From the IMG/VR virus record IMGVR_UViG_3300035182_001152: a stretch of DNA of 64,000 bases, one strand, 5' to 3'. This DNA is from a virus (lineage: Duplodnaviria > Caudoviricetes). This document shows, one piece after another, positions 42,812-64,000 of the stretch; the first letter of the stretch is position 1, and every line of letters starts with the position of its first letter. The notes below the pieces were generated by a model, which did no database searches, was not told the origin of the DNA, and saw only the letters and a program-made list of their open reading frames with translations. Made by a program: the position numbers and the translations under genes.

Positions 42812-43108
42812 TTTGTTCCTTGTGCAATTGCGGCATGATCATCGCAATTGGCACAAAGATCAACAGCAATAAACCGACATGAGGGGCCTTGAGGTTTCTT
42901 TTGGCGTTCCCTCTACACACTACATTCGCCCGCGCGCTGGGTTACTAGCACCAAGTGCAGCTAGTTCTCACGATACTAGCCTGTCTAAATTTGGATGTCG
43001 AGCACGGAGGCTTCGTCTCGACGCGCCTGTTAACACTCTCAAGCTCGAGAGGGGCTCGAACGGTTTCGAGCGGCTCCACCAACTGAGTTGCTTGCACATT
43101 TCAGTGAG

Positions 43109-43954
43109 TTAACTATCAGTCTCACCCAATTTTTTCGTCAACGGCGTCATCTTAAACACAGACTTGGGTTTGGAGCCGGGTACGTCTCGCCACCCCTCAT
43201 CGATTAGGCGATCGTACAGCCCTTCGTTCAGGATGCTCTCAACGTACGTGCACCGGAATGGGTTGATCTGATGCATATGGTTGATTACCCGCATGCCAAG
43301 ACCTCGGCCTCTGAATTGCTCAGAGACTGTAATTGTACCAATGTCAAAGGATTGGATCAATGCGCCTGAGATCGCATGATGAGCCTTACGGGTATACACA
43401 CTGATGATGTCGTCTCCATATACCCAATGGTTAGGATATGGTCCATCAAGGAATCCCTGGATCTCCTGCTTGAACGAAGTAAACGCCTGGTTACAGACGT
43501 CTACGCAATTTCGCTCAAATAAGGCCAGGTCTGACATGTCACACCAGGCGGCTACGATTGCATTCACGTAGTGAAGATTGCTCTCCGCCACGAGGCCATT
43601 GCTGTTGCTGTTGGAGCGAGCAGCATCAACGATGTTCTTCGCTTCTTTCAGGCCAAGCTTGGTGTTCTCACGGACCATCTTGATCGCCGAGATGAGCCCA
43701 CCACTGCGGAGCAGGCTGGCGACATCGCCAGCCCACCTTGGGTCAGCGGGTGCGGTCTTCGTCACGACGCCGGCGTCGTGCAGTTGGACGAAGATTGCCG
43801 GATGCTTTTTGGCAAGAGCCAAGGCAATCGCATGAGAGTCGTAGTTGCCTGATGCAATGATGTCGACGATGCGCTCATGAACCTCGTTGGAGGTTGACGT
43901 GGGCGTCGGCTGCAGAGAGATGCGACGTTGAGATTGCTGTTGTTGCTTGGACAT
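43109..43954 (-). CDS. bL12-CTD-like domain fused to GNAT-like domain
   Basis: ISAIKMVRENTKLGLKEAKNIVD; ITVSEQFRGRGLG acetyl-CoA-binding motif. Confidence 0.6.
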   Translation of the reverse strand: MSKQQQQSQRRISLQPTPTSTSNEVHERIVDIIASGNYDSHAIALALAKKHPAIFVQLHDAGVVTKTAPADPRWAGDVASLLRSGGLISAIKMVRENTKLGLKEAKNIVDAARSNSNSNGLVAESNLHYVNAIVAAWCDMSDLALFERNCVDVCNQAFTSFKQEIQGFLDGPYPNHWVYGDDIISVYTRKAHHAISGALIQSFDIGTITVSEQFRGRGLGMRVINHMHQINPFRCTYVESILNEGLYDRLIDEGWRDVPGSKPKSVFKMTPLTKKLGETDS

Positions 43955-44174
43955 GATTGAGTCCTAGTTAAAGTAACTCAATCATCCTGTTAGCAGCTTT
44001 GACCCTCAACAATTACTTCTTGCACTGCCAACCAGCGACGACCTTACCCACTTCACCAGCATGTTCTGGTGAAGTGTTGCTGATTTTGATCTTACGGTTG
44101 ATTAGGCCCGTTTCTTCGAGCTTCATACGAATATCCGGTAACGTTGGAAGCTCGACGAGAATGGGCTTGTCAAC

Positions 44175-55656: not shown

Positions 55657-56022
55657 TTAGGGGGACAACACCGGGTCGGGAACAGGGAACAGGGAACAGG
55701 GAACAGGGAACAGGGAACAGGGAACAGGGAACAGGGAACAGGGAACAGGGAACAGGGAACAGGGAACAGGGAACAGCAAGTACGGTTGGGTCGCGACCTT
55801 GTTCGCCCGATGATCAGCCCACCCGTCGTCCGTCTGTTCACCGTTAATGAACACCTTGCGGCTGATCATCTTCAGGGACACCCAGCCGGAAGAAGAGAAC
55901 TTGATCGTGCGACCAATCACAACAGACGCCCGGCTACCTTCCGTTGAGGTGTACCCGTACGTCGCACCGAGAACAACTTCGTTCCCGAGTGCATCTTTGG
56001 TTGGTAGTTGCTTGCGGCTCAT
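55657..56022 (-). CDS. hypothetical protein ending in a heptamer-encoded repeat
   Basis: MSRKQLPTKDALGNEV...PYLLFPV(PCSLFPV)4PDPVLSP. Confidence 0.55.
   Translation of the reverse strand: MSRKQLPTKDALGNEVVLGATYGYTSTEGSRASVVIGRTIKFSSSGWVSLKMISRKVFINGEQTDDGWADHRANKVATQPYLLFPVPCSLFPVPCSLFPVPCSLFPVPCSLFPVPDPVLSP
55678..55775. repeat. tandem heptamer (GGGAACA)x14
   Basis: 14 perfect units counted. Confidence 0.95.
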
Positions 56023-56307
56023 CATCGGTGGTTGTAGTAGTAGCCCAATCCGAGCGTGGCTTGAATGAACACAGCGAAAGTTGACAGTAGGACCCACCAG
56101 TTCCCCGGGACGATCCTCAGGTTCGTTTCCAAGAACGTAGTCATCCCCAGGATCACCACTGTTCCGCCACAGAACACGAGGATCAGCATCCCCAGGATCA
56201 CGACCAGCAAATTTGGCTTGCGGCATTTCATGTTCGGTCCTTTACAGATTCAACAGGCTACCGCGGTAGCCTGGAGGCAGACCGAGATAGCTGGTTATTT
56301 GGTTGCA

Positions 56308-56333
56308 GGAGCCAGGTTCGGGAGCCAGGTTCG
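56308..56333. repeat. tandem 13-mer x2
   Basis: GGAGCCAGGTTCG twice in a GC-rich intergenic region. Confidence 0.8.
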
Positions 56334-56471
56334 GGAGGGATCGGCACAGGGACGACCGGCCCGGTTCCACTACACAGGCAGATCGATGAGCCCAGCGCCC
56401 ACCCTGCCGGCCCGGTTGGGCCGTTCGGCTTTTTCACCGGCCACAGTAGTAGCCGAGAGGCGGCACAGCAC

Positions 56472-56840
56472 TCATTGCTTGTACTCCCCGTAGTCAGCAA
56501 GCCGTTGCGATTCGGTCGCAACGATCTTGAACGTCACAATCTGGCCTGGGACATCGGAACACGGCGAGCTCCTGCCACCACCGACATCCTTGATGTACAG
56601 CGTGTGCAGGCAGTACCACATCTCAGTGAAGTCCGGATCTTTGACCGCCCAGTTCAGCGCGAGCACTGGGTCGGTCGTGTACGGACCATCTTCGCCGCCG
56701 CTGAACAGCGAATTGCTCGTCAGGTACTTCTTGACGCCGTCATGGACGACCTCGATGCAGACGCGGTCACCTCGCTCGGCCGCTTGGTTCAGGCGAGCGA
56801 GGATGTTCGGAGGAGGCAGCTGGCGCACGATCACACTCAT
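56472..56840 (-). CDS. hypothetical protein
   Basis: 122 aa. Confidence 0.55.
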   Translation of the reverse strand: MSVIVRQLPPPNILARLNQAAERGDRVCIEVVHDGVKKYLTSNSLFSGGEDGPYTTDPVLALNWAVKDPDFTEMWYCLHTLYIKDVGGGRSSPCSDVPGQIVTFKIVATESQRLADYGEYKQ

Positions 56841-56843
56841 CGA

Positions 56844-57068
56844 CTAACGGTTGCTCACAGCATGCGACAGGACCGTCACCTCCGGGTTGTTGTGCCAGTG
56901 GCGATCGATCGTGTTCGTCTTCTCGAACGCGACTTCGATGTCGTCGGTGTTGACCGACGCAACTGCCTTGTACGATGACACTGGGATCGTTGCCTTGATG
57001 AACTCCGCCGAGCGGTAACCAAGCATCCGGTCGCCATCTTCGTTGAGGTAGTATACGGTGATCGACAT
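56844..57068 (-). CDS. hypothetical protein
   Basis: AAGGAG RBS after a repeated promoter. Confidence 0.6.
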   Translation of the reverse strand: MSITVYYLNEDGDRMLGYRSAEFIKATIPVSSYKAVASVNTDDIEVAFEKTNTIDRHWHNNPEVTVLSHAVSNR

Positions 57069-57132
57069 CTGTGTTGCTCCTTGATGGGATTGGAGTATCG
57101 TAACCCCTTCACCCCATTAAGGCAACAGCCAC

Positions 57133-57549
57133 TTAACGACGAACAGGCTCGTCGTATTGGAGACCAAACAGCTCGGCGATCTCAGCCATCTGTTGCTCGT
57201 ACACAGCAGCACCGTGCTCCTGCTTGACGTGCTCACCATTAACATTCAGTCGGGTCAGCTTCAGGGCAGTGTCGTGAGCATTCTGCAGACGGATCAGCAG
57301 CTCGGTGTCAACACCCTCCAGCTCCTTGAGCACCGCATCATTCGCAGGGCAGTGGTGCTCAAGGATGTGCGAGATTGGACCGAACGTGTTGCGGGCAGTG
57401 TCTGTCGTCAGCAGGTGGCCAACACCGCAACGGACCGCAGGAGTGTCCGGGACAATGTATGTACACCGGCCATCCTTGTCAACCGCCCGGCGGTATTGTT
57501 GGCCTCGGATCCCCTTCAGGGAGCGGGTGAATGCTTGCTGGTTGTCCAT
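57133..57549 (-). CDS. hypothetical protein
   Basis: GRCTY..RCGVGHL motif, GAGG RBS. Confidence 0.6.
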   Translation of the reverse strand: MDNQQAFTRSLKGIRGQQYRRAVDKDGRCTYIVPDTPAVRCGVGHLLTTDTARNTFGPISHILEHHCPANDAVLKELEGVDTELLIRLQNAHDTALKLTRLNVNGEHVKQEHGAAVYEQQMAEIAELFGLQYDEPVRR

Positions 57550-57622
57550 CTATACCTCATACGTAGTGATAAGGTATACTGTCTATGTGACCCATTTAAT
57601 GATCAACCGACTCGCTATTAGG

Positions 57623-57979
57623 TTAACGCCCCCCGAGGCGTCCATACGCGTCGTTCAGAGCCCGCTTGATCCCGTCGCACTCAATCTGCTGGCGCGCTGC
57701 CGGGCTCAGCCTCAGCAGGTAGTACTGGTCCCGGGTCATCACCTTCGACCACCCGACGCTTGCACTGAACGACCGGCTGCCATTGAGCGACGTCCCCCGC
57801 TCGTCGGCGAACTGGTACGTCGTTGGACCGTTCACAGCCAGATCAAACCGCCACAGCGTCAGTGCAGCAACAGGCCACCCACCAAGCTGCTGATCAACAA
57901 GAGCGGCGAGCTGCCGGTCCGGTGACGCAACACCGTTGATGTACTCCGGCACATCCTTGGTTGTCATCCTGTATGGCAT
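57623..57979 (-). CDS. hypothetical protein
   Basis: 118 aa. Confidence 0.55.
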   Translation of the reverse strand: MPYRMTTKDVPEYINGVASPDRQLAALVDQQLGGWPVAALTLWRFDLAVNGPTTYQFADERGTSLNGSRSFSASVGWSKVMTRDQYYLLRLSPAARQQIECDGIKRALNDAYGRLGGR

Positions 57980-57982
57980 CTG

Positions 57983-58282
57983 CTATCCCCGTGCGAGCTG
58001 CACCATCACATCGGTGATCTTCCGCTGGGCGTTCTTGATGTGCGTGTCCGTCCGACCAGTCCACGAATAGTCGTTCTCCCGCAGCGCTTCGTTCAGGCTG
58101 TCGATCGCGCCGTGCAGCTGGTTGATCACGTGCTGGTTCGTTGCGAACGGGCGGACGTTGCGGGTGACCTTGAACCGGTGCTTGTTGTTCCATTCCGCAG
58201 TCATCGCGATGTCGAACGGGTGCGTCTCCAGCGTGTAGCCGGCGTCCGCGATCGCACCGAGGTATGCAGACAGTGCTTGCAT
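57983..58282 (-). CDS. hypothetical protein
   Basis: AAGGAG RBS. Confidence 0.6.
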   Translation of the reverse strand: MQALSAYLGAIADAGYTLETHPFDIAMTAEWNNKHRFKVTRNVRPFATNQHVINQLHGAIDSLNEALRENDYSWTGRTDTHIKNAQRKITDVMVQLARG

Positions 58283-58307
58283 CTTGTTGCTCCTTCCCTG
58301 TGACCCG

Positions 58308-58721
58308 TCAAGCGTACAGCCCGTGCGGGTGGCCGTCCTCGAACGCCTCCAGCGTCAGGTCGCGCGACTGGTACAGCACCTTGATCGCCTCGCTTGGGCG
58401 CATCAGCGTCCAGCTGCACGGGCCATCCGCCCACTCGTACGTCTCGTCGATGTGGCGGATCACCGAAGCAGGATCCGCTGCGACCATCCGCATGCTGCCG
58501 CTGTACTGGACGCCATCGCAGTCACGGCCGGACCACATCACTGCGATCGATCCTTCCTCTTGCAGCTCGGCGATCTGCCGGTGCATGCGGATCCGCGCTT
58601 GCGTCTGGTTGTGCAGCTCCTCGATCCGGTCGCCGAGCACCTTGTTCAGGATGAACAGGCGCCGGCTCGGCGTGACGTCGGCAGTGCGGATTGCGCTCAG
58701 CAGGTTGGTGGTCGACAGCAT
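58308..58721 (-). CDS. hypothetical protein
   Basis: GGAG RBS; WSGRDCDGVQY..EWADGP. Confidence 0.6.
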   Translation of the reverse strand: MLSTTNLLSAIRTADVTPSRRLFILNKVLGDRIEELHNQTQARIRMHRQIAELQEEGSIAVMWSGRDCDGVQYSGSMRMVAADPASVIRHIDETYEWADGPCSWTLMRPSEAIKVLYQSRDLTLEAFEDGHPHGLYA

Positions 58722-59133
58722 GTTGGTCTCCGGTTGCGATGGGAGTACTATCCCAGCACTCCGGGTTAGGGTCAACCGTTTACTTTAGCGCGCTGGCAGG
58801 TGGGAGCTGAACACGTGCTTCGCCTCGATCGCAAACGTGCCACACCATGTCGGAGCACGAGCCGTTGAGCGTCTGCTGGCCCTGCAGGTACCAATACACA
58901 ACGGTGTGCGTCCGGTTGACGAACTCGGAGAACTGCTTGGCTTGCTAGTTCAACTCGACGCACTTGCTGAGGACCCACGAGAACGTGTGCTTGAGGAAGT
59001 CGTCGTGGTCCATAATTGTGTTCAGTGGCCGGCGACAAAGATCACGACGTCGAGCAGCAGCTCACGGACACGCCGCACGATCGGACGGATCCGGTTGCCG
59101 AAATTGGTTCGTTGGTATGTAGTCATCATCACC

Positions 59134-59448
59134 TCAGTCGTTGATCAGGTGCAGCTCGTAACCATCCAGCTGCGGGTTGCTCCGCACCGTCTCGTGAGTC
59201 GGGCGGAAGATCATCACCTCAACCTCATCGTCCGCGTTGATCACGTCGTGCGACCAGTGCCACACGGTCGTGACACCAGTCTCGTCGCTGCGGATCGCCA
59301 GGCCGACATCAGCAGCGTCGTCGTACAGCTGGCTGAGCGGCGAGTTGCCGGGGCGGACCCCAAGGTCGCTCAGCTCAGCAACCAACAGGCCGCGCTTTCG
59401 GTTGCACGAGAACAGCTTGGACGAGAACGGGGTCAGTCGCAGTTGCAT
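59134..59448 (-). CDS. hypothetical protein
   Basis: GGAG RBS after a repeated promoter. Confidence 0.65.
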   Translation of the reverse strand: MQLRLTPFSSKLFSCNRKRGLLVAELSDLGVRPGNSPLSQLYDDAADVGLAIRSDETGVTTVWHWSHDVINADDEVEVMIFRPTHETVRSNPQLDGYELHLIND

Positions 59449-59454
59449 GTTGGT

Positions 59455-59508
59455 CTCCAGTTGATGTGGCTACTATACATCAGCATCCACATCGGATCAA
59501 CGGGTCAG
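59455..59508 (-). promoter_or_regulatory. repeated early promoter with inverted repeat
   Basis: TTGATC-17 nt-TATAGT; GATGTGG/CCACATC arms. Confidence 0.8.
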
Positions 59509-59987
59509 TCCTCGTCGTAGTCCTCGTCGTAGTCCTCATCATCATGCCCTTGGTAGTCCGGCTCCGAGTGGTTGTACATGTCATCGATGTTGACGATCGG
59601 CTCCGGATTGTTGATGATCGCTTGGACGACGATCTCCATGATGTCGGTCACGGTGTTGGCCGCTTCCCGGTCAGCCAGGCCGAACGTCTGCTCGCCATGT
59701 GAGTAGTTGTTAGCAAACCGCAGTGCCCCGTTCAAGCGGATCAACTCTCCAACAGAGATCCTGTTCGGCAGCAGGTTGATGCTGTCGCGGAGGAACACAA
59801 CGGCGCCGGACCAGTTGTTGCAGCCCCAGCCGTTGTTGTACCAGTCGTAGCTGATCTTGTTCGCGGCGTGCAGCAGCTCACCTTGCAGCGTCTCCGCTGC
59901 CCCGTTCACCGGCACCAGCTTGTCGAACAGCTCGCGCTGCGTCGTTGTCAACGGGTGGGCACCAGTCCAGAAGTTCGGTCGCGTCAT
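59505..59987 (-). CDS. hypothetical protein with acidic tail
   Basis: GELL.AANKISYDWYNNG motif. Confidence 0.65.
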   Translation of the reverse strand: MTRPNFWTGAHPLTTTQRELFDKLVPVNGAAETLQGELLHAANKISYDWYNNGWGCNNWSGAVVFLRDSINLLPNRISVGELIRLNGALRFANNYSHGEQTFGLADREAANTVTDIMEIVVQAIINNPEPIVNIDDMYNHSEPDYQGHDDEDYDEDYDED

Positions 59988-60124
59988 TGAGGTCTCCAGT
60001 TGATGTGGTTACTATAGCACAGCCTCACGCTGAGGGCAACAGGATCCGGCTGCAGATCATGTACAGCTGGGCGGCCGTCCCTGCCAAGCTCGACCGGCCA
60101 GCCAAATTGGCGATCCAGTCCGAT

Positions 60125-60228
60125 CATGGCAGATCAGCTCAGCTCAGCTCAGCTCAGCTCAGCTCAGCTCATGGCAGATCAGCTCAGCGCAGCTCGGCTC
60201 GGCTCAGCGCAGCTCGGCTCGGCTCAGC
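60125..60228. repeat. pentamer microsatellite (CAGCT/CGGCT/CAGCG) with a duplicated 19-mer
   Basis: CATGGCAGATCAGCTCAGC at 60125 and 60170; intergenic. Confidence 0.9.
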
Positions 60229-60388
60229 CACTTGGCGATCGCGAGCGGCCGTCCCCGTCGGTACAGATCACGAAGAGTGGTCACATCACGGGATCCTGCG
60301 CCAGGTGATCCAGCTGACGACGCCCGCGGTCCGAGCGGTGAACAGCCCACCACACCGGCCGCAGGTGTATTGCGCAGTCGAGGCCACC

Positions 60389-60616
60389 TCAGCCCTCCAG
60401 CGGTTGGTCAGGGAAGATCGTCTGGCGATCGGCGAAGTACCGGCCGTTCCACTGTGCGACGTGGACCGCATAGCCGATGCTGTGCCAGAACGCCGCCTCG
60501 CTCGCGGACTCCGCTTGGCCGATCTCCATCTCACGGCTGTCCCCTTCAGCGTTGACGGGAGAGGAGACGCTAAGCCGAGGCTGGTCGGTGCGATAGTGGA
60601 TGCTGGTCTGGTTCAT
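60389..60616 (-). CDS. hypothetical protein
   Basis: GGAG RBS after a repeated promoter. Confidence 0.6.
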   Translation of the reverse strand: MNQTSIHYRTDQPRLSVSSPVNAEGDSREMEIGQAESASEAAFWHSIGYAVHVAQWNGRYFADRQTIFPDQPLEG

Positions 60617-60620
60617 GCTT

Positions 60621-60676
60621 GGTCTCCAGTTGGTGCGTCTAGTATCAGACCAAACGCACCAACGATCAACGGGTCA
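60621..60676 (-). promoter_or_regulatory. repeated early promoter with inverted repeat
   Basis: TTGATC-17 nt-GATACT; GTTGGTGCGT/ACGCACCAAC arms. Confidence 0.75.
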
Positions 60677-60913
60677 GTACGTCAGCGAGCCGGAATACTC
60701 GTTGTAGAAGCTCATCCACTGGACCGCGAACTCTTCGCCGCTGTTGTTGACCAGCAGGCCGAATCGCTTGGCGTACTGGTACGGCCCCTCACGATCGAAC
60801 ACCTCACGGATGTCGCTGATCACCGAGTCGGTCGTCTGGCCGACGTTCGCCGCCTGGATGTCGGTGATCAGCGCCTCGACCTTCGGAAAGCGGCTCAGCA
60901 GATCGGTGTGCAT
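60674..60913 (-). CDS. hypothetical protein
   Basis: GAGGAG RBS. Confidence 0.6.
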   Translation of the reverse strand: MHTDLLSRFPKVEALITDIQAANVGQTTDSVISDIREVFDREGPYQYAKRFGLLVNNSGEEFAVQWMSFYNEYSGSLTY

Positions 60914-60919
60914 GTGGAC

Positions 60920-60977
60920 TCCTCAGTAGTTGATGTGGCTACTGTACTACCAATCAGTAGCCACATCAACAGGTCAG
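60920..60977 (-). promoter_or_regulatory. repeated early promoter with 16-bp inverted repeat
   Basis: TTGATG-17 nt-TACAGT; arms 60929-60944 and 60955-60970. Confidence 0.8.
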
Positions 60978-61330
60978 CTGCCGGTGATCAGGTCGATCAT
61001 GTGCTCGTTGACGAGCCTGAAGTCTTCGATAAAGATGTGGTGGCGGTCGCCGCTTTGCTTGATTGCTTGAGCGGCCGCTTTGTTGAGATCCATCCACGTC
61101 GGATTGTCGGGCAGGTCGATCAGCTGGTGTTTGCCCCATTGAAGCGTGTACGACAGCCTCAGACCCGTACCACGGTGAGCGATCGTGTCAGCGTCCTTCG
61201 TGCCGATCCCCGTCACCGACCAGCACGTGCCGTCGATCGTGAAGTCACCACCCTCGTCAATGCTTGCATCCCATTGTTCGCTGGTCCATGCGTCCGTGTC
61301 GACGTTGGGGGAAAGGCTCGTCGGTTTCAC
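60974..61330 (-). CDS. hypothetical protein
   Basis: PTWMDL..AA.QAI..SGD.HHIFIEDF. Confidence 0.6.
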   Translation of the reverse strand: MKPTSLSPNVDTDAWTSEQWDASIDEGGDFTIDGTCWSVTGIGTKDADTIAHRGTGLRLSYTLQWGKHQLIDLPDNPTWMDLNKAAAQAIKQSGDRHHIFIEDFRLVNEHMIDLITGS

Positions 61331-61430
61331 GCTTGGCTTTCTGATGCGGTAGACGTAGTATCCAGCCCCTTCCGTATAACCACAACAGTGCCCATACGGA
61401 AGGGAAGGCCTTTCGGCCTCCCTGTTGACT

Positions 61431-61952
61431 TCAGAATTCGTGGCGGCCGCCGTTGACGTTCATCGCCAGGATGTTTTCCAGCTTGACCGTGCGGATGATC
61501 ACCTTGTCTTCGAGGCCACCTTGTTCGGCTTCTTCGCGGGCAGGCGGAAGGCCCTCGATGAACGCAGGATCGATCTGCTTGCCGTTGTGCTCGTAATGCA
61601 CCTTGCCAGGCTTGACGTAGAACACTTCGAGGTACAGCTCACCCTTGTTCTCGATGAACGGCGTGCCATCAACGCGCTTGCCCCACTTGCGCTCCTGCAG
61701 TTCGAACGCGTCCGGATCCTTGCCTTCAGCGGCAAGGCGGCGGCGCACCATGTTGTCGTACACGCTGCCCTTCTTCATGCCCGCAACCATCACGTTCGCG
61801 CCCACTTGGATCTTGCGAACGTGGCCCTTCATCGGGTTCTTCTTGCCGCCGAGCAGCGTCGGTTCGGTGCTGATGTCGATCGACAGGAGCTTGGTGCCCT
61901 TGACGTCTTGCAGCAGTTCAGCGATCACTTCGTTTGCGAAGTCGACATGCAT
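61431..61952 (-). CDS. hypothetical phage protein
   Basis: GGAGAG RBS; KKNP..YDNMVRRRL..ERKWG.RVDGTPFIE.KG..YL. Confidence 0.65.
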   Translation of the reverse strand: MHVDFANEVIAELLQDVKGTKLLSIDISTEPTLLGGKKNPMKGHVRKIQVGANVMVAGMKKGSVYDNMVRRRLAAEGKDPDAFELQERKWGKRVDGTPFIENKGELYLEVFYVKPGKVHYEHNGKQIDPAFIEGLPPAREEAEQGGLEDKVIIRTVKLENILAMNVNGGRHEF

Positions 61953-61996
61953 TTGAATCTCTCCGTGCGTTGTTGAATCAGTGAAGCCAGTATCCC

Positions 61997-62242
61997 TCAG
62001 ACCACGCTGTTGGACAACAGGGCCACCTTGCCGCGGAGACGATGCCTCAACTCGATGATGCTGGTGACGAACGCACGGCGGAACGTGTGCTCGTGGTAGA
62101 AGTGTCTCGCCCGTTGACTTGCAGACGGAGACGAGTGACGATACCGGGCGCACTGTCGCATGATCTCGAGGTAGCGCGCCATGTCCTCACGACTCGTGTT
62201 CTCATACCGCCGCCCCTCGTTGTTCGGCAGCTCGTACGTCAT
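61997..62242 (-). CDS. hypothetical protein
   Basis: ATGA-coupled small ORF. Confidence 0.5.
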   Translation of the reverse strand: MTYELPNNEGRRYENTSREDMARYLEIMRQCARYRHSSPSASQRARHFYHEHTFRRAFVTSIIELRHRLRGKVALLSNSVV

Positions 62243-62484
62243 ACGCGGCGCCCCTTCGCACGCGAAGGCAGCATCTTCACCAGCTCCGCCATCGACTTCA
62301 GGATCTCGCGGCGGCGCCGTTCCTGCTCACGCTGCTGTGGCACCGTCATATTGACCGGGCGGCTCTTGCAGTGGTCCCAGTGCCGCGACAACCCCAACGA
62401 CGTGAACAGCTCGTTGCAGTGTGTGCAACGCTTGAACCACGGTTGCCCGACGCGGTGCATCGGGTTCTTGACGCTAGTTGCCAT
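62239..62484 (-). CDS. small Zn-finger-like protein
   Basis: CTHCNELF..LSRHWDHC. Confidence 0.55.
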   Translation of the reverse strand: MATSVKNPMHRVGQPWFKRCTHCNELFTSLGLSRHWDHCKSRPVNMTVPQQREQERRRREILKSMAELVKMLPSRAKGRRV

Positions 62485-62767
62485 TCTTGTTGCGCTCCTC
62501 GTAACGCTTCATGATTGCTGCATGATCCATCGTCTTCTGCCGGCTGGCAACGAGTTCCACGATGCCGTCCACCAACACCGCTCGAACGGTTTCTTCCGTG
62601 GTACCGTACGTCGAGAAGTCGCCAGGCTCGTCGACAGCCAGGTGCGTGTCAACGAAGTTTTCAGCGTTGCTACGGATCACCAGTTCTGCTGCAGCACCCT
62701 CGAACAGCTCGTACAACGACTCGTCGGACAGTTCAGCCATTCGGGTTAGCAATTCACGGTGCGGCAT
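62474..62767 (-). CDS. hypothetical protein
   Basis: GGAG RBS after a repeated promoter. Confidence 0.6.
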   Translation of the reverse strand: MPHRELLTRMAELSDESLYELFEGAAAELVIRSNAENFVDTHLAVDEPGDFSTYGTTEETVRAVLVDGIVELVASRQKTMDHAAIMKRYEERNKNGN

Positions 62768-62772
62768 AGTAG

Positions 62773-62830
62773 ACTCCAAGTTGTGGTGCGCCTAGCGTAC
62801 AGCCAAACGCACCACAGATCAACTGGTCAG
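62773..62830 (-). promoter_or_regulatory. repeated early promoter with inverted repeat
   Basis: TTGATC-17 nt-TACGCT; TGTGGTGCG/CGCACCACA arms. Confidence 0.75.
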
Positions 62831-63189
62831 CCGTCGACGTCGTCGATCTCTTCCTCTTCAACCTCTTCCCACTTGAGGTTCGGGAAGTACAGCACGACGT
62901 CGTAACCCATGTTGTCCCACGAGAACTTGGTCAGCTGGTCGATCAGCGTTGCCACTTGATCGCGCTTGTTGTACGCTTCACGGTCGCTGTCGTCGGTATC
63001 GATCGACGACGTGAACAGGTCTTCCATCGCGGCAGTCAGGGCGCCAGCGACCACCGCTTGGCAGTCCGACAGCGTGCCGGTGATCCCGACGCAGTTGCGT
63101 CCGAACATCCCGCGCCCCGAGTACGAGCGGACGGCCGCGCCGTTGTCGAGGTCCTTCGCGGCGTCGAGCAGCAGTTGTTGGGCGTTCAT
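62827..63189 (-). CDS. hypothetical protein
   Basis: RSYSGRGMFGRNCVGI..DNMG...V.YFP. Confidence 0.65.
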   Translation of the reverse strand: MNAQQLLLDAAKDLDNGAAVRSYSGRGMFGRNCVGITGTLSDCQAVVAGALTAAMEDLFTSSIDTDDSDREAYNKRDQVATLIDQLTKFSWDNMGYDVVLYFPNLKWEEVEEEEIDDVDG

Positions 63190-63196
63190 TGCAGAG

Positions 63197-63255
63197 CTCC
63201 TTCAGTTGTTGATGTGGCTACTATACATCCAACTAGCAGCCACATCAACGGGTCA
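63197..63255 (-). promoter_or_regulatory. repeated early promoter with 12-bp inverted repeat
   Basis: TTGATG-17 nt-TATAGT; arms 63208-63219 and 63238-63249. Confidence 0.8.
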
Positions 63256-63558
63256 CTTCGTCCGCTTGTCCTCGATCGGCAGGGCGGCCTTCATCGTGTT
63301 GACCCACGTTTGCAGGTCAGCTTCCGCCTGCCTGCGGCCGTCGTCGGTGTTCTTGTACGGCTTCTTGGTGATCTCGGTCGCCATCTTCAGCATCTTGCTG
63401 ATCGTCACGCCGCGAGTCGGGATCATGCCGCACTTGATGTACAGGCCGATGAAGCCCTTCAGTTGCGCGGCCTTGTAGAACAGCATCGCATCCGGACCGA
63501 CGATCGTCGTGCCGCCGTCGGTGTGGGTGATCTGGCTGACGGTATCGGGAGTGCTCAT
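63253..63558 (-). CDS. hypothetical protein
   Basis: AGGAG RBS. Confidence 0.6.
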   Translation of the reverse strand: MSTPDTVSQITHTDGGTTIVGPDAMLFYKAAQLKGFIGLYIKCGMIPTRGVTISKMLKMATEITKKPYKNTDDGRRQAEADLQTWVNTMKAALPIEDKRTK

Positions 63559-63630
63559 CGCAGTTTGCTCCTGTTGGTTGCTGATGTGGTCCAGTATCTC
63601 CTAGACCACCTCTTCAGACAACGGTTGACC

Positions 63631-63966
63631 TTAGGCCGCGTAGCCGGCATAATTGCCCGACTCGTAGCTCAGCCAGAATACCGCCCGCCTCTCGCAGCCG
63701 TCTTCCATACTGCGATAGGTATACTCGATCCGCAGCTGGGCAGCGCCACTAATCAGGTCAACACCTTCGATGCCAACCAACTTTTTCGTGCTGGTAAACC
63801 TGCATTGCGCAAGCGTCGCCTTCAGTGTCTCGAGCGGCTGTGGGCCGTTGATCAGTTGGTCAGCGTAACGCGCCAGGTGAGTGACGGCCTCGAGGGTGGC
63901 TGGCGACATCAAGTTGATCTTGCTCACGGCTGGCTCCTTGGTCGGATGCACGAATCCTACCCCCAA
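63631..63966 (-). CDS. hypothetical protein
   Basis: 111 aa; the true start is probably later, after AAGGAG. Confidence 0.5.
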   Translation of the reverse strand: MGVGFVHPTKEPAVSKINLMSPATLEAVTHLARYADQLINGPQPLETLKATLAQCRFTSTKKLVGIEGVDLISGAAQLRIEYTYRSMEDGCERRAVFWLSYESGNYAGYAA

Positions 63967-64000
63967 TCACTGCTGTCCGACAACGAGGCAACGCCGTTGT

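Follow-up and report, generated by a model that had tools for sequence, protein, structure and literature searches.

The window analysed here, a 64 000-nucleotide stretch of an uncultured giant phage (IMG/VR virus record IMGVR_UViG_3300035182_001152), ends in a GC-rich region of small minus-strand genes arranged in tandem (57.0–63.7 kb), and these genes are punctuated by a repeated cassette in which a σ70-type promoter is overlaid, in some of the copies, by an inverted repeat. The cassettes are probably, at a probability of about 0.6, promoter(early) stem-loop (PeSL)-type expression linkers of a giant T4-related phage; judged by their sequences, they are a long-stemmed variant of the PeSL and not a new kind of DNA-hairpin promoter. 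PeSLs were described from T4-type phages (RB49/phi1, T4/PST and KVP40/nt-1) as strong σ70 promoters with stem-loops between or over the −35 and −10 boxes; delimited by a stop codon and a Shine–Dalgarno sequence, they block upstream transcription in a reporter and mediate the shuffling of ORFans and the formation of mini-circles (Arbiol et al., 2010, PMC2839356; Comeau et al., 2014, PMC4122927).

Twelve minus-strand gene starts with TTGNNN, a spacer of exactly 17 nt and (T/G)A(T/C)NNT were located in the region by eye and by a pattern scan, where at least eight had been claimed in a preliminary description of this DNA. The promoters are listed in Table 1 and are named here by the first base of the −35 box. 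A GGAG-type Shine–Dalgarno sequence and a start codon follow eleven of them; promoter 61385 has no Shine–Dalgarno match and precedes a GTG start. The complete cassette is a unit of about 60 nt consisting of a stop codon (usually as TGA-CCNG, which abuts the −35 box), the σ70 −35 box, the 17-nt spacer, the −10 box, a short leader, GGAG (7–14 nt past the predicted transcription start) and a start codon. The bases upstream of the −35 box are GC-rich (GACCCG, GACCTG, GACCAG) and form no AT-rich tract. For comparison, the surroundings of seven homologues of the 173-aa gene of the array (61431–61952; >550 homologues) were taken (L122, L123/L124, L126, L127, L128, L130 and L131), with gene calls that are crude. 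L123/L124 is referred to as relative Y and the present phage as W. In total 77 cassettes were collected across five related phages.

The folding of each whole cassette was scored as a z value against 200 dinucleotide shuffles. All six inverted repeats quoted in the preliminary description were recovered, with z values of −3.0 to −6.1 except at 59500 (−2.05); DNA folding parameters gave similar results. The accompanying claim that most of the promoters carry such a repeat held in part. An enclosing repeat is convincing at only about half of the twelve, as it is at about half of all cassettes; those at 57125 and 58775 are weak, as had been said, that at 59500 is weak as well, and none encloses promoters 62017, 61385, 60039 or 57606. 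Nor is the −10 box confined to the loop, as had been proposed: with G·U pairs counted, the stems of cassettes 63248, 62822 and 60669 reach 15–16 bp and extend over the 3′ half of the hexamer, which straddles the loop and the 3′ arm. The centre of symmetry falls between a point about 4 nt upstream of the hexamer and the middle of the hexamer, and the start site predicted some 7 nt beyond the hexamer lies inside the 3′ arm. The arms occupy those parts of the promoter that are free in sequence, the 5′ arm covering the −35 box and the spacer and the 3′ arm the discriminator and the first transcribed bases. The same unit, with many unrelated arm sequences, was found in the GC-rich relatives L122, L123/L124, L126 and L127, where stems of up to 20 bp with 8-nt loops give z values down to −8 to −10; in the AT-rich relative L128 and in L130 embedded hairpins are few or absent. 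No stem size is preferred across related cassettes, the lengths running from about 8 to 22 bp, and the register varies.

Eight cassettes of one geometry, in which the −35 box is paired with the start-site region, were aligned without gaps. In the 20-pair helix thus defined 85% of the cells pair, 12 of the 20 pairs are doubly changed (26 cells) and every single-sided change is a G·U; none of 500 shuffles matched these values, and sliding the partner by 1–3 columns as a control lowered the pairing to 27–55%. A register-free test on the 77 cassettes gave a mean minimum free energy of −18.3 kcal/mol for the native sequences and −12.3 kcal/mol for chimeras with the 3′ half of another cassette, a difference of about 6 kcal/mol that was reached in none of 5000 permutations. 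The scoring of aligned copies had been suggested as a check in the preliminary description, and its observation that the arms change while the pairing is kept was borne out.

One 3′ arm, GGCTTCACTG, is conserved among cassettes; three cassettes of L127 pair with it through three different spacer sequences in three registers, and the copies in W, X and Y show no pairing. The use of three registers on one conserved arm indicates that selection acts on pairing as such and not on one geometry or one sequence, which in turn excludes recognition by a single DNA-binding protein as well as an N4-like promoter. An operator for a dimeric phage regulator, or a hairpin promoter of the N4 kind read by a phage RNA polymerase, is for this reason highly improbable as the explanation of the repeats. 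A repressor would indeed act at the −35 box and the start site, both of which the symmetric arms overlap; however, arm sequence, half-site spacing and register all vary, such that no single protein could read them, and the −35 and −10 boxes with their 17-nt spacing are conserved independently of the arms. The promoters of the N4 virion RNA polymerase, to which an analogy had been drawn, likewise have an inverted repeat immediately before the start sites of early genes. They consist of a short stem and a 3-nt loop at a fixed position, lack σ70 boxes and are transcribed on extruded DNA by a phage polymerase, whereas the present cassettes have canonical boxes, stems of 6–20 bp and loops of 3–18 nt in a variable register, and the analogy fails on both counts.

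The position of one arm upstream of the start site had been taken to mean that the pairing must occur in DNA. This does not follow, as it leaves read-through out of account. No terminator-like site was flagged between these genes of the window, nor was any cassette hairpin flagged as terminator-like, so that RNA from upstream promoters would hold both arms. Transcription from the cassette's own promoter would start within the 3′ arm and give an mRNA with a short unstructured leader; read-through transcripts would carry a stable hairpin that fills the interval from the upstream stop codon to the next ribosome site. Such an RNA hairpin may mark a transcript boundary, acting as an attenuator, a pause site, a 3′-end or processing barrier or an insulator between single-gene units. 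Its overlap with the promoter would arise only from the very short intergenic space, the hairpin being pushed onto the promoter. Where the stop codon lies 0–12 nt before the −35 box the median z is −4.0 (n = 36) and 18 of the 36 cassettes have z ≤ −4, whereas with a longer gap or with the stop codon inside the promoter embedded hairpins are rare (median z −1.1 and −1.8; Mann–Whitney p = 0.0007). In several long gaps of this phage's array a separate hairpin stands upstream of the promoter, in some cases with a T-run; across the related phages such hairpins are inconsistent (median z −1.0).

The strand on which the pairing is maintained was addressed by counting wobbles with a strand-symmetric stem definition, in which G·T is a wobble in the sense RNA and A·C would be one only in the antisense strand. 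G·T mismatches outnumber A·C mismatches by 35:19 (p = 0.04), by 32:15 with a stricter cut-off and two more loci (p = 0.019) and by 11:1 in this phage alone, although the base composition would, if anything, favour A·C. The excess stability over shuffles is also larger for the sense strand (−7.27 kcal/mol) than for the antisense strand (−6.49 kcal/mol; p = 0.027). The single-sided changes in the eight-cassette alignment, all of them G·U, bear on the same question. This wobble bias, the variable register of the stems and the dependence on a short distance from stop codon to promoter fit an RNA hairpin better than the supercoiling-dependent cruciform switch that had been put forward earlier.

Structure at the DNA level was nevertheless weighed in two forms. 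Extrusion of a cruciform or hairpin in supercoiled or single-stranded phage DNA, which would gate the σ70 promoters or direct a structure-specific nuclease or recombinase (e.g. of the endonuclease VII type) driving cassette exchange, is unlikely. Several arms are perfect over 15–20 bp with spacers of 8–12 nt, single-strand DNA folding is also significant and a shuffling signature is present (see below); however, the excess of G·T over A·C and the larger stability of the sense strand would be unexpected if the structure had to form on both strands, promoters with roomy upstream gaps have no repeat, and stem register and length vary freely. Many loops, counted with Watson–Crick pairs only, are moreover 10–18 nt long, and loops of this size disfavour cruciform extrusion. 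A model in which supercoil-driven extrusion places the −10 region at the tip of the palindrome, and thereby switches early promoters of the host polymerase or presents a target for a phage nuclease in cassette exchange, was given about half that probability. If true, it would make these palindromes a structure-gated class of σ70 promoter or a hairpin-targeted gene-shuffling system.

That the selected feature is the hairpin in read-through RNA was given a probability of about 0.6 because the effect sizes are modest, and several points weigh against it. The sense-strand wobble bias is uneven as well as modest (9:8 in L127), some of the G·U pairs are common to paralogous cassettes, and the wobble test has limited power and observations that are partly non-independent. 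The start sites, the read-through RNA and the effect of the hairpin on it are predictions. The lack of a T-run after the embedded hairpins makes canonical intrinsic termination unlikely, and the AT-rich upstream tract of classical PeSLs is missing. The association with tight junctions could instead reflect a single mobile family of cassettes that includes the hairpin, and perfect arms of 15–20 bp with 8-nt spacers could also extrude as cruciforms.

The first of two possible modes of action to be dismissed was masking of the ribosome site. Over 39 strong hairpins the probability that the Shine–Dalgarno sequence is unpaired was 0.40 in the modelled read-through RNA and 0.40 in the promoter-initiated RNA, and masking was rejected on account of this equality. 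In the T4 genes e, soc and I-TevI a hairpin with a nested promoter controls translation, the 3′ arm sequestering the ribosome-binding site in read-through RNA. The cassettes resemble this arrangement in that the promoter lies inside the hairpin, with own transcripts that would lack the 5′ arm and read-through transcripts that would contain the complete hairpin; unlike there, the accessibility of the Shine–Dalgarno sequence is the same in both RNA forms, and the T4 mechanism is therefore not applicable. The second, a canonical intrinsic terminator, was rejected for the embedded hairpins since they have no T-run. Canonical terminators with a hairpin and a T-run do occur in longer gaps of the same array, in the L117 contig of this phage (L117:2358–2480, 3120–3200 and 7597–7660).

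Two promoter-like sites elsewhere in the window, both on the minus strand, were recorded separately. At 43953–44009 a 10-bp hairpin (ATGATTGAGT / ACTCAATCAT) has a 5′ arm that overlaps the −10 box and a 3′ arm that lies over the start codon; this is the classical layout of T4 e/soc and differs from the array cassettes. At 42822–42863, far from the array, an 8-bp repeat (CAATTGCG / CGCAATTG) holds the −10 box, GATCAT, in its loop.

A sub-case of the RNA reading is that host RNase III cuts the read-through hairpins to yield single-gene messages, as in the early region of T7. This was judged rather improbable. Like the RNase III sites of T7 and T3 early mRNAs and like 3′-stabilizing hairpins of the REP type, the cassettes place stable hairpins exactly between cistrons and without a T-run, and many stems reach 14–20 bp when G·U pairs are counted. 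RNase III usually needs roughly two helical turns, yet the stems are not tuned to that length and many fall short of it. Nor was a conserved internal-loop motif seen, and the T7/T3 sites and REP elements, unlike the cassettes, carry no promoter. The spread of stem lengths argues against a substrate measured by length; cutting of the longer stems by RNase III is possible.

The repeats might, finally, be without function: recent copies of one palindromic ancestor, with arms kept complementary by quasi-palindrome (template-switch) mutation. In T4 the templated correction of quasi-palindromes is an established source of mutations, and the type-1 arms are nearly unchanged at 63248, 60969 and 59500 and in relative Y. 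On the other side stand dozens of unrelated arm sequences in five phages, new 5′ arms in different registers on the conserved 3′ arm, the tolerance of G·U above A·C and the concentration of hairpins in tight junctions. Neutral templating predicts none of these, and such a by-product is accordingly held to be improbable.

The proposal that the cassettes are recombination units that shuffle early genes agrees both with the arrays and with the published PeSL concept (PMC2839356, PMC4122927). Few genes are common to the arrays, and those that are have been reordered: g3, g7, g11, g15 here and g11, g7, g15, g3 in Y. The cassettes at 63197–63255 and 60918–60973 are 87–90% identical to a Y cassette and form isolated islands between unrelated genes (87% for the table entry 63190–63255 and 90% for 60914–60976), while orthologous genes have only 70–75% nucleotide identity. 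Homology to the relatives starts at the cassette edges. The orthologue in Y of the 75-aa gene has a cassette with entirely different arms, and the hairpin-less cassette before the 173-aa gene is kept in four phages behind unrelated upstream genes. Since the same cassette stands between unrelated genes, it would supply the homology for gain, loss and reordering of single genes. At 61997–62026 (minus strand) the 81-aa gene stops within the spacer of the promoter that follows it, so that the conserved cassette encodes the final residues and the stop codon of this gene.

The likeness to PeSLs extends to most of the defining features that were checked. The cassettes run from the stop codon of a small gene to the Shine–Dalgarno sequence and start codon of the next, contain a σ70-type promoter with a 17-nt spacer and have a stem-loop between or over its boxes. 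They recur many times in a hyperplastic ORFan region, in which relatives differ in gene order and content by gain, loss and reordering at the cassettes. Published PeSL stems, in contrast, are short and have one motif per phage (G-run/C-run, A3-4G3/C3T3-4 or AGNA/TCNT), whereas the stems here extend over up to 20 bp from the −35 box to about +6, are specific to the cassette and covary. Neither an AT-rich tract upstream of the −35 box nor a T-rich stretch after the hairpin is present. The phage itself comes from a distant lineage of giant phages.

Table 1. Promoters of the minus-strand gene array and their hairpins (positions in the window; the higher coordinate of the −35 box is its first base).
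Feature	Coordinates	Strand	−35 box	−10 box	Arms (5′/3′)	Hairpin and remarks
Cassette before 101-aa gene (ATG 63558)	63559–63633	−	63616–63621	63593–63598	63604–63609/63586–63591	6 bp; 8/9 pairs if extended; z −3.0
Cassette before 120-aa gene, stop codon TGA	63190–63255	−	63243–63248	63220–63225	63238–63249/63208–63219	12 bp; 16 bp with one G·U; z −6.1
Cassette before 97-aa gene	62767–62829	−	62817–62822	62794–62799	62808–62816/62782–62790	9 bp; 15 bp with three G·U, loop 5; z −4.0
Hairpin-less promoter before 173-aa gene	61953–62026	−	62012–62017	61989–61994		Stop codon of upstream gene in spacer; kept in X, Y and L127
Longer gap with separate GC-rich hairpin (~61402–61422), then promoter	61331–61430	−	61380–61385	61357–61362		No enclosing repeat
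Cassette before 79-aa gene	60914–60976	−	60964–60969	60941–60946	60955–60970/60929–60944	16 bp; z −5.6
Cassette before 75-aa gene	60617–60676	−	60664–60669	60641–60646	60654–60663/60629–60638	10 bp; 15 bp with two G·U, loop 5; z −4.7
Promoter before 160-aa gene, ~400 nt from previous called gene	59988–60045	−	at 60039			3′ arm sequence retained; 5′ arm and hairpin absent
Cassette before 104-aa gene	59449–59507	−	59495–59500	59472–59477	59487–59493/59463–59469	7 bp; −35 box pairs with start-site region across 5-nt bulge; z −2.05
Promoter before 137-aa gene	58722–58785	−	58770–58775			Weak local pairing only; z −2.5
Promoter before 138-aa gene	57550–57622	−	57601–57606			No enclosing repeat; 7-bp hairpin in leader
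Promoter before 74-aa gene	57069–57132	−	57120–57125			Imperfect repeat, 10/12 pairs, loop 20; z −3.0

The genes of the window include a UvsW-type helicase, a gp44-like clamp loader, radical-SAM enzymes, FolE2, a tyrosyl-tRNA synthetase and two tRNAs. As regards membership of the T4 type, the UvsW-type helicase and the gp44-like clamp loader were seen, and by the clamp loader the closest cultured phages are the giant myoviruses RsoM2USA, Xoo-sp13, XacN1 and PA5oct (42–46% amino-acid identity). A nucleotide search of the array region against cultured phages gave no match. In RsoM2USA, the closest cultured phage by clamp loader, the promoter pattern is not enriched (14 matches versus 13 in the control); it was dropped as a cultured model of the cassettes because the pattern is at control level, and no cultured relative carrying such cassettes emerged. 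The paper on PA5oct describes σ70-like promoters and separate terminators, and a search of it by term gave 'stem-loop' only for predicted terminators. For the 173-aa gene a pattern search of IMG/VR found no relative, and among deposited phages there was a single weak match, in an uncultured 484-kb phage. A search of viral contigs with an exact 14-mer of the commonest 3′ arm returned scattered single chance matches only. The T4 late-promoter motif TATAAATA occurs just twice in the window and was not used as evidence.

Contigs of the same phage from several samples came up when the 101-aa protein was looked up. One of these, L117, matches the window without a difference as far as a CAGCT tandem repeat, and in it the array extends at least 10 kb beyond the end of the window and carries further such promoters. 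Five contigs of the phage are 99.7–100% identical and hold no informative polymorphism; the sole difference among the same-phage contigs is the CAGCT pentamer repeat at 60130–60228, with about 20 copies (82% matches) in a gap of about 400 nt between called array genes. Base composition steps within this one phage genome, the early-gene array at 56000–64000 having 58–60% GC and positions 1–46000 about 48–52%; taken together, the window outside the GC-rich end has about 49%. At 58783–59013 (minus strand) a 76-codon open reading frame with gene-like codon usage has an in-frame TAG after codon 22 (MDHDDFLKHTFSWVLSKCVELN, stop, QAKQF...), and may be a recent pseudogene or a case of programmed read-through or of stop-codon recoding.

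Two further hairpin loci were noted in the contigs. In relative Y (L123:7381–7560) the sequence after a hairpin-embedded promoter with a 17-bp stem (z −7.3) is not an open reading frame but resembles a tRNA, with a GGTTCGAATCC T-arm. A large, near-perfect hairpin with a GC-rich stem and the conserved loop CTAGTAAACATCTGG, common to this phage and relative Y, lies upstream of a promoter at L117:5190–5280 and L123:620–700 (z −7 and −9) and may be a terminator or a small RNA.

PeSL-like cassettes are thought to serve large lytic phages in insulating and shuffling the many small genes of their early regions. The long, cassette-specific stems described here add what the classical PeSLs could not, namely compensatory evolution that shows selection on pairing, and this clade gives a first, modest indication that the sense RNA may be the selected molecule. 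Hairpin and promoter share the same 45 bases, the arms being placed in the two sequence-free parts of a σ70 promoter, and this layout offers a design rule for annotating the genomes of uncultured phages and for building compact synthetic expression linkers.

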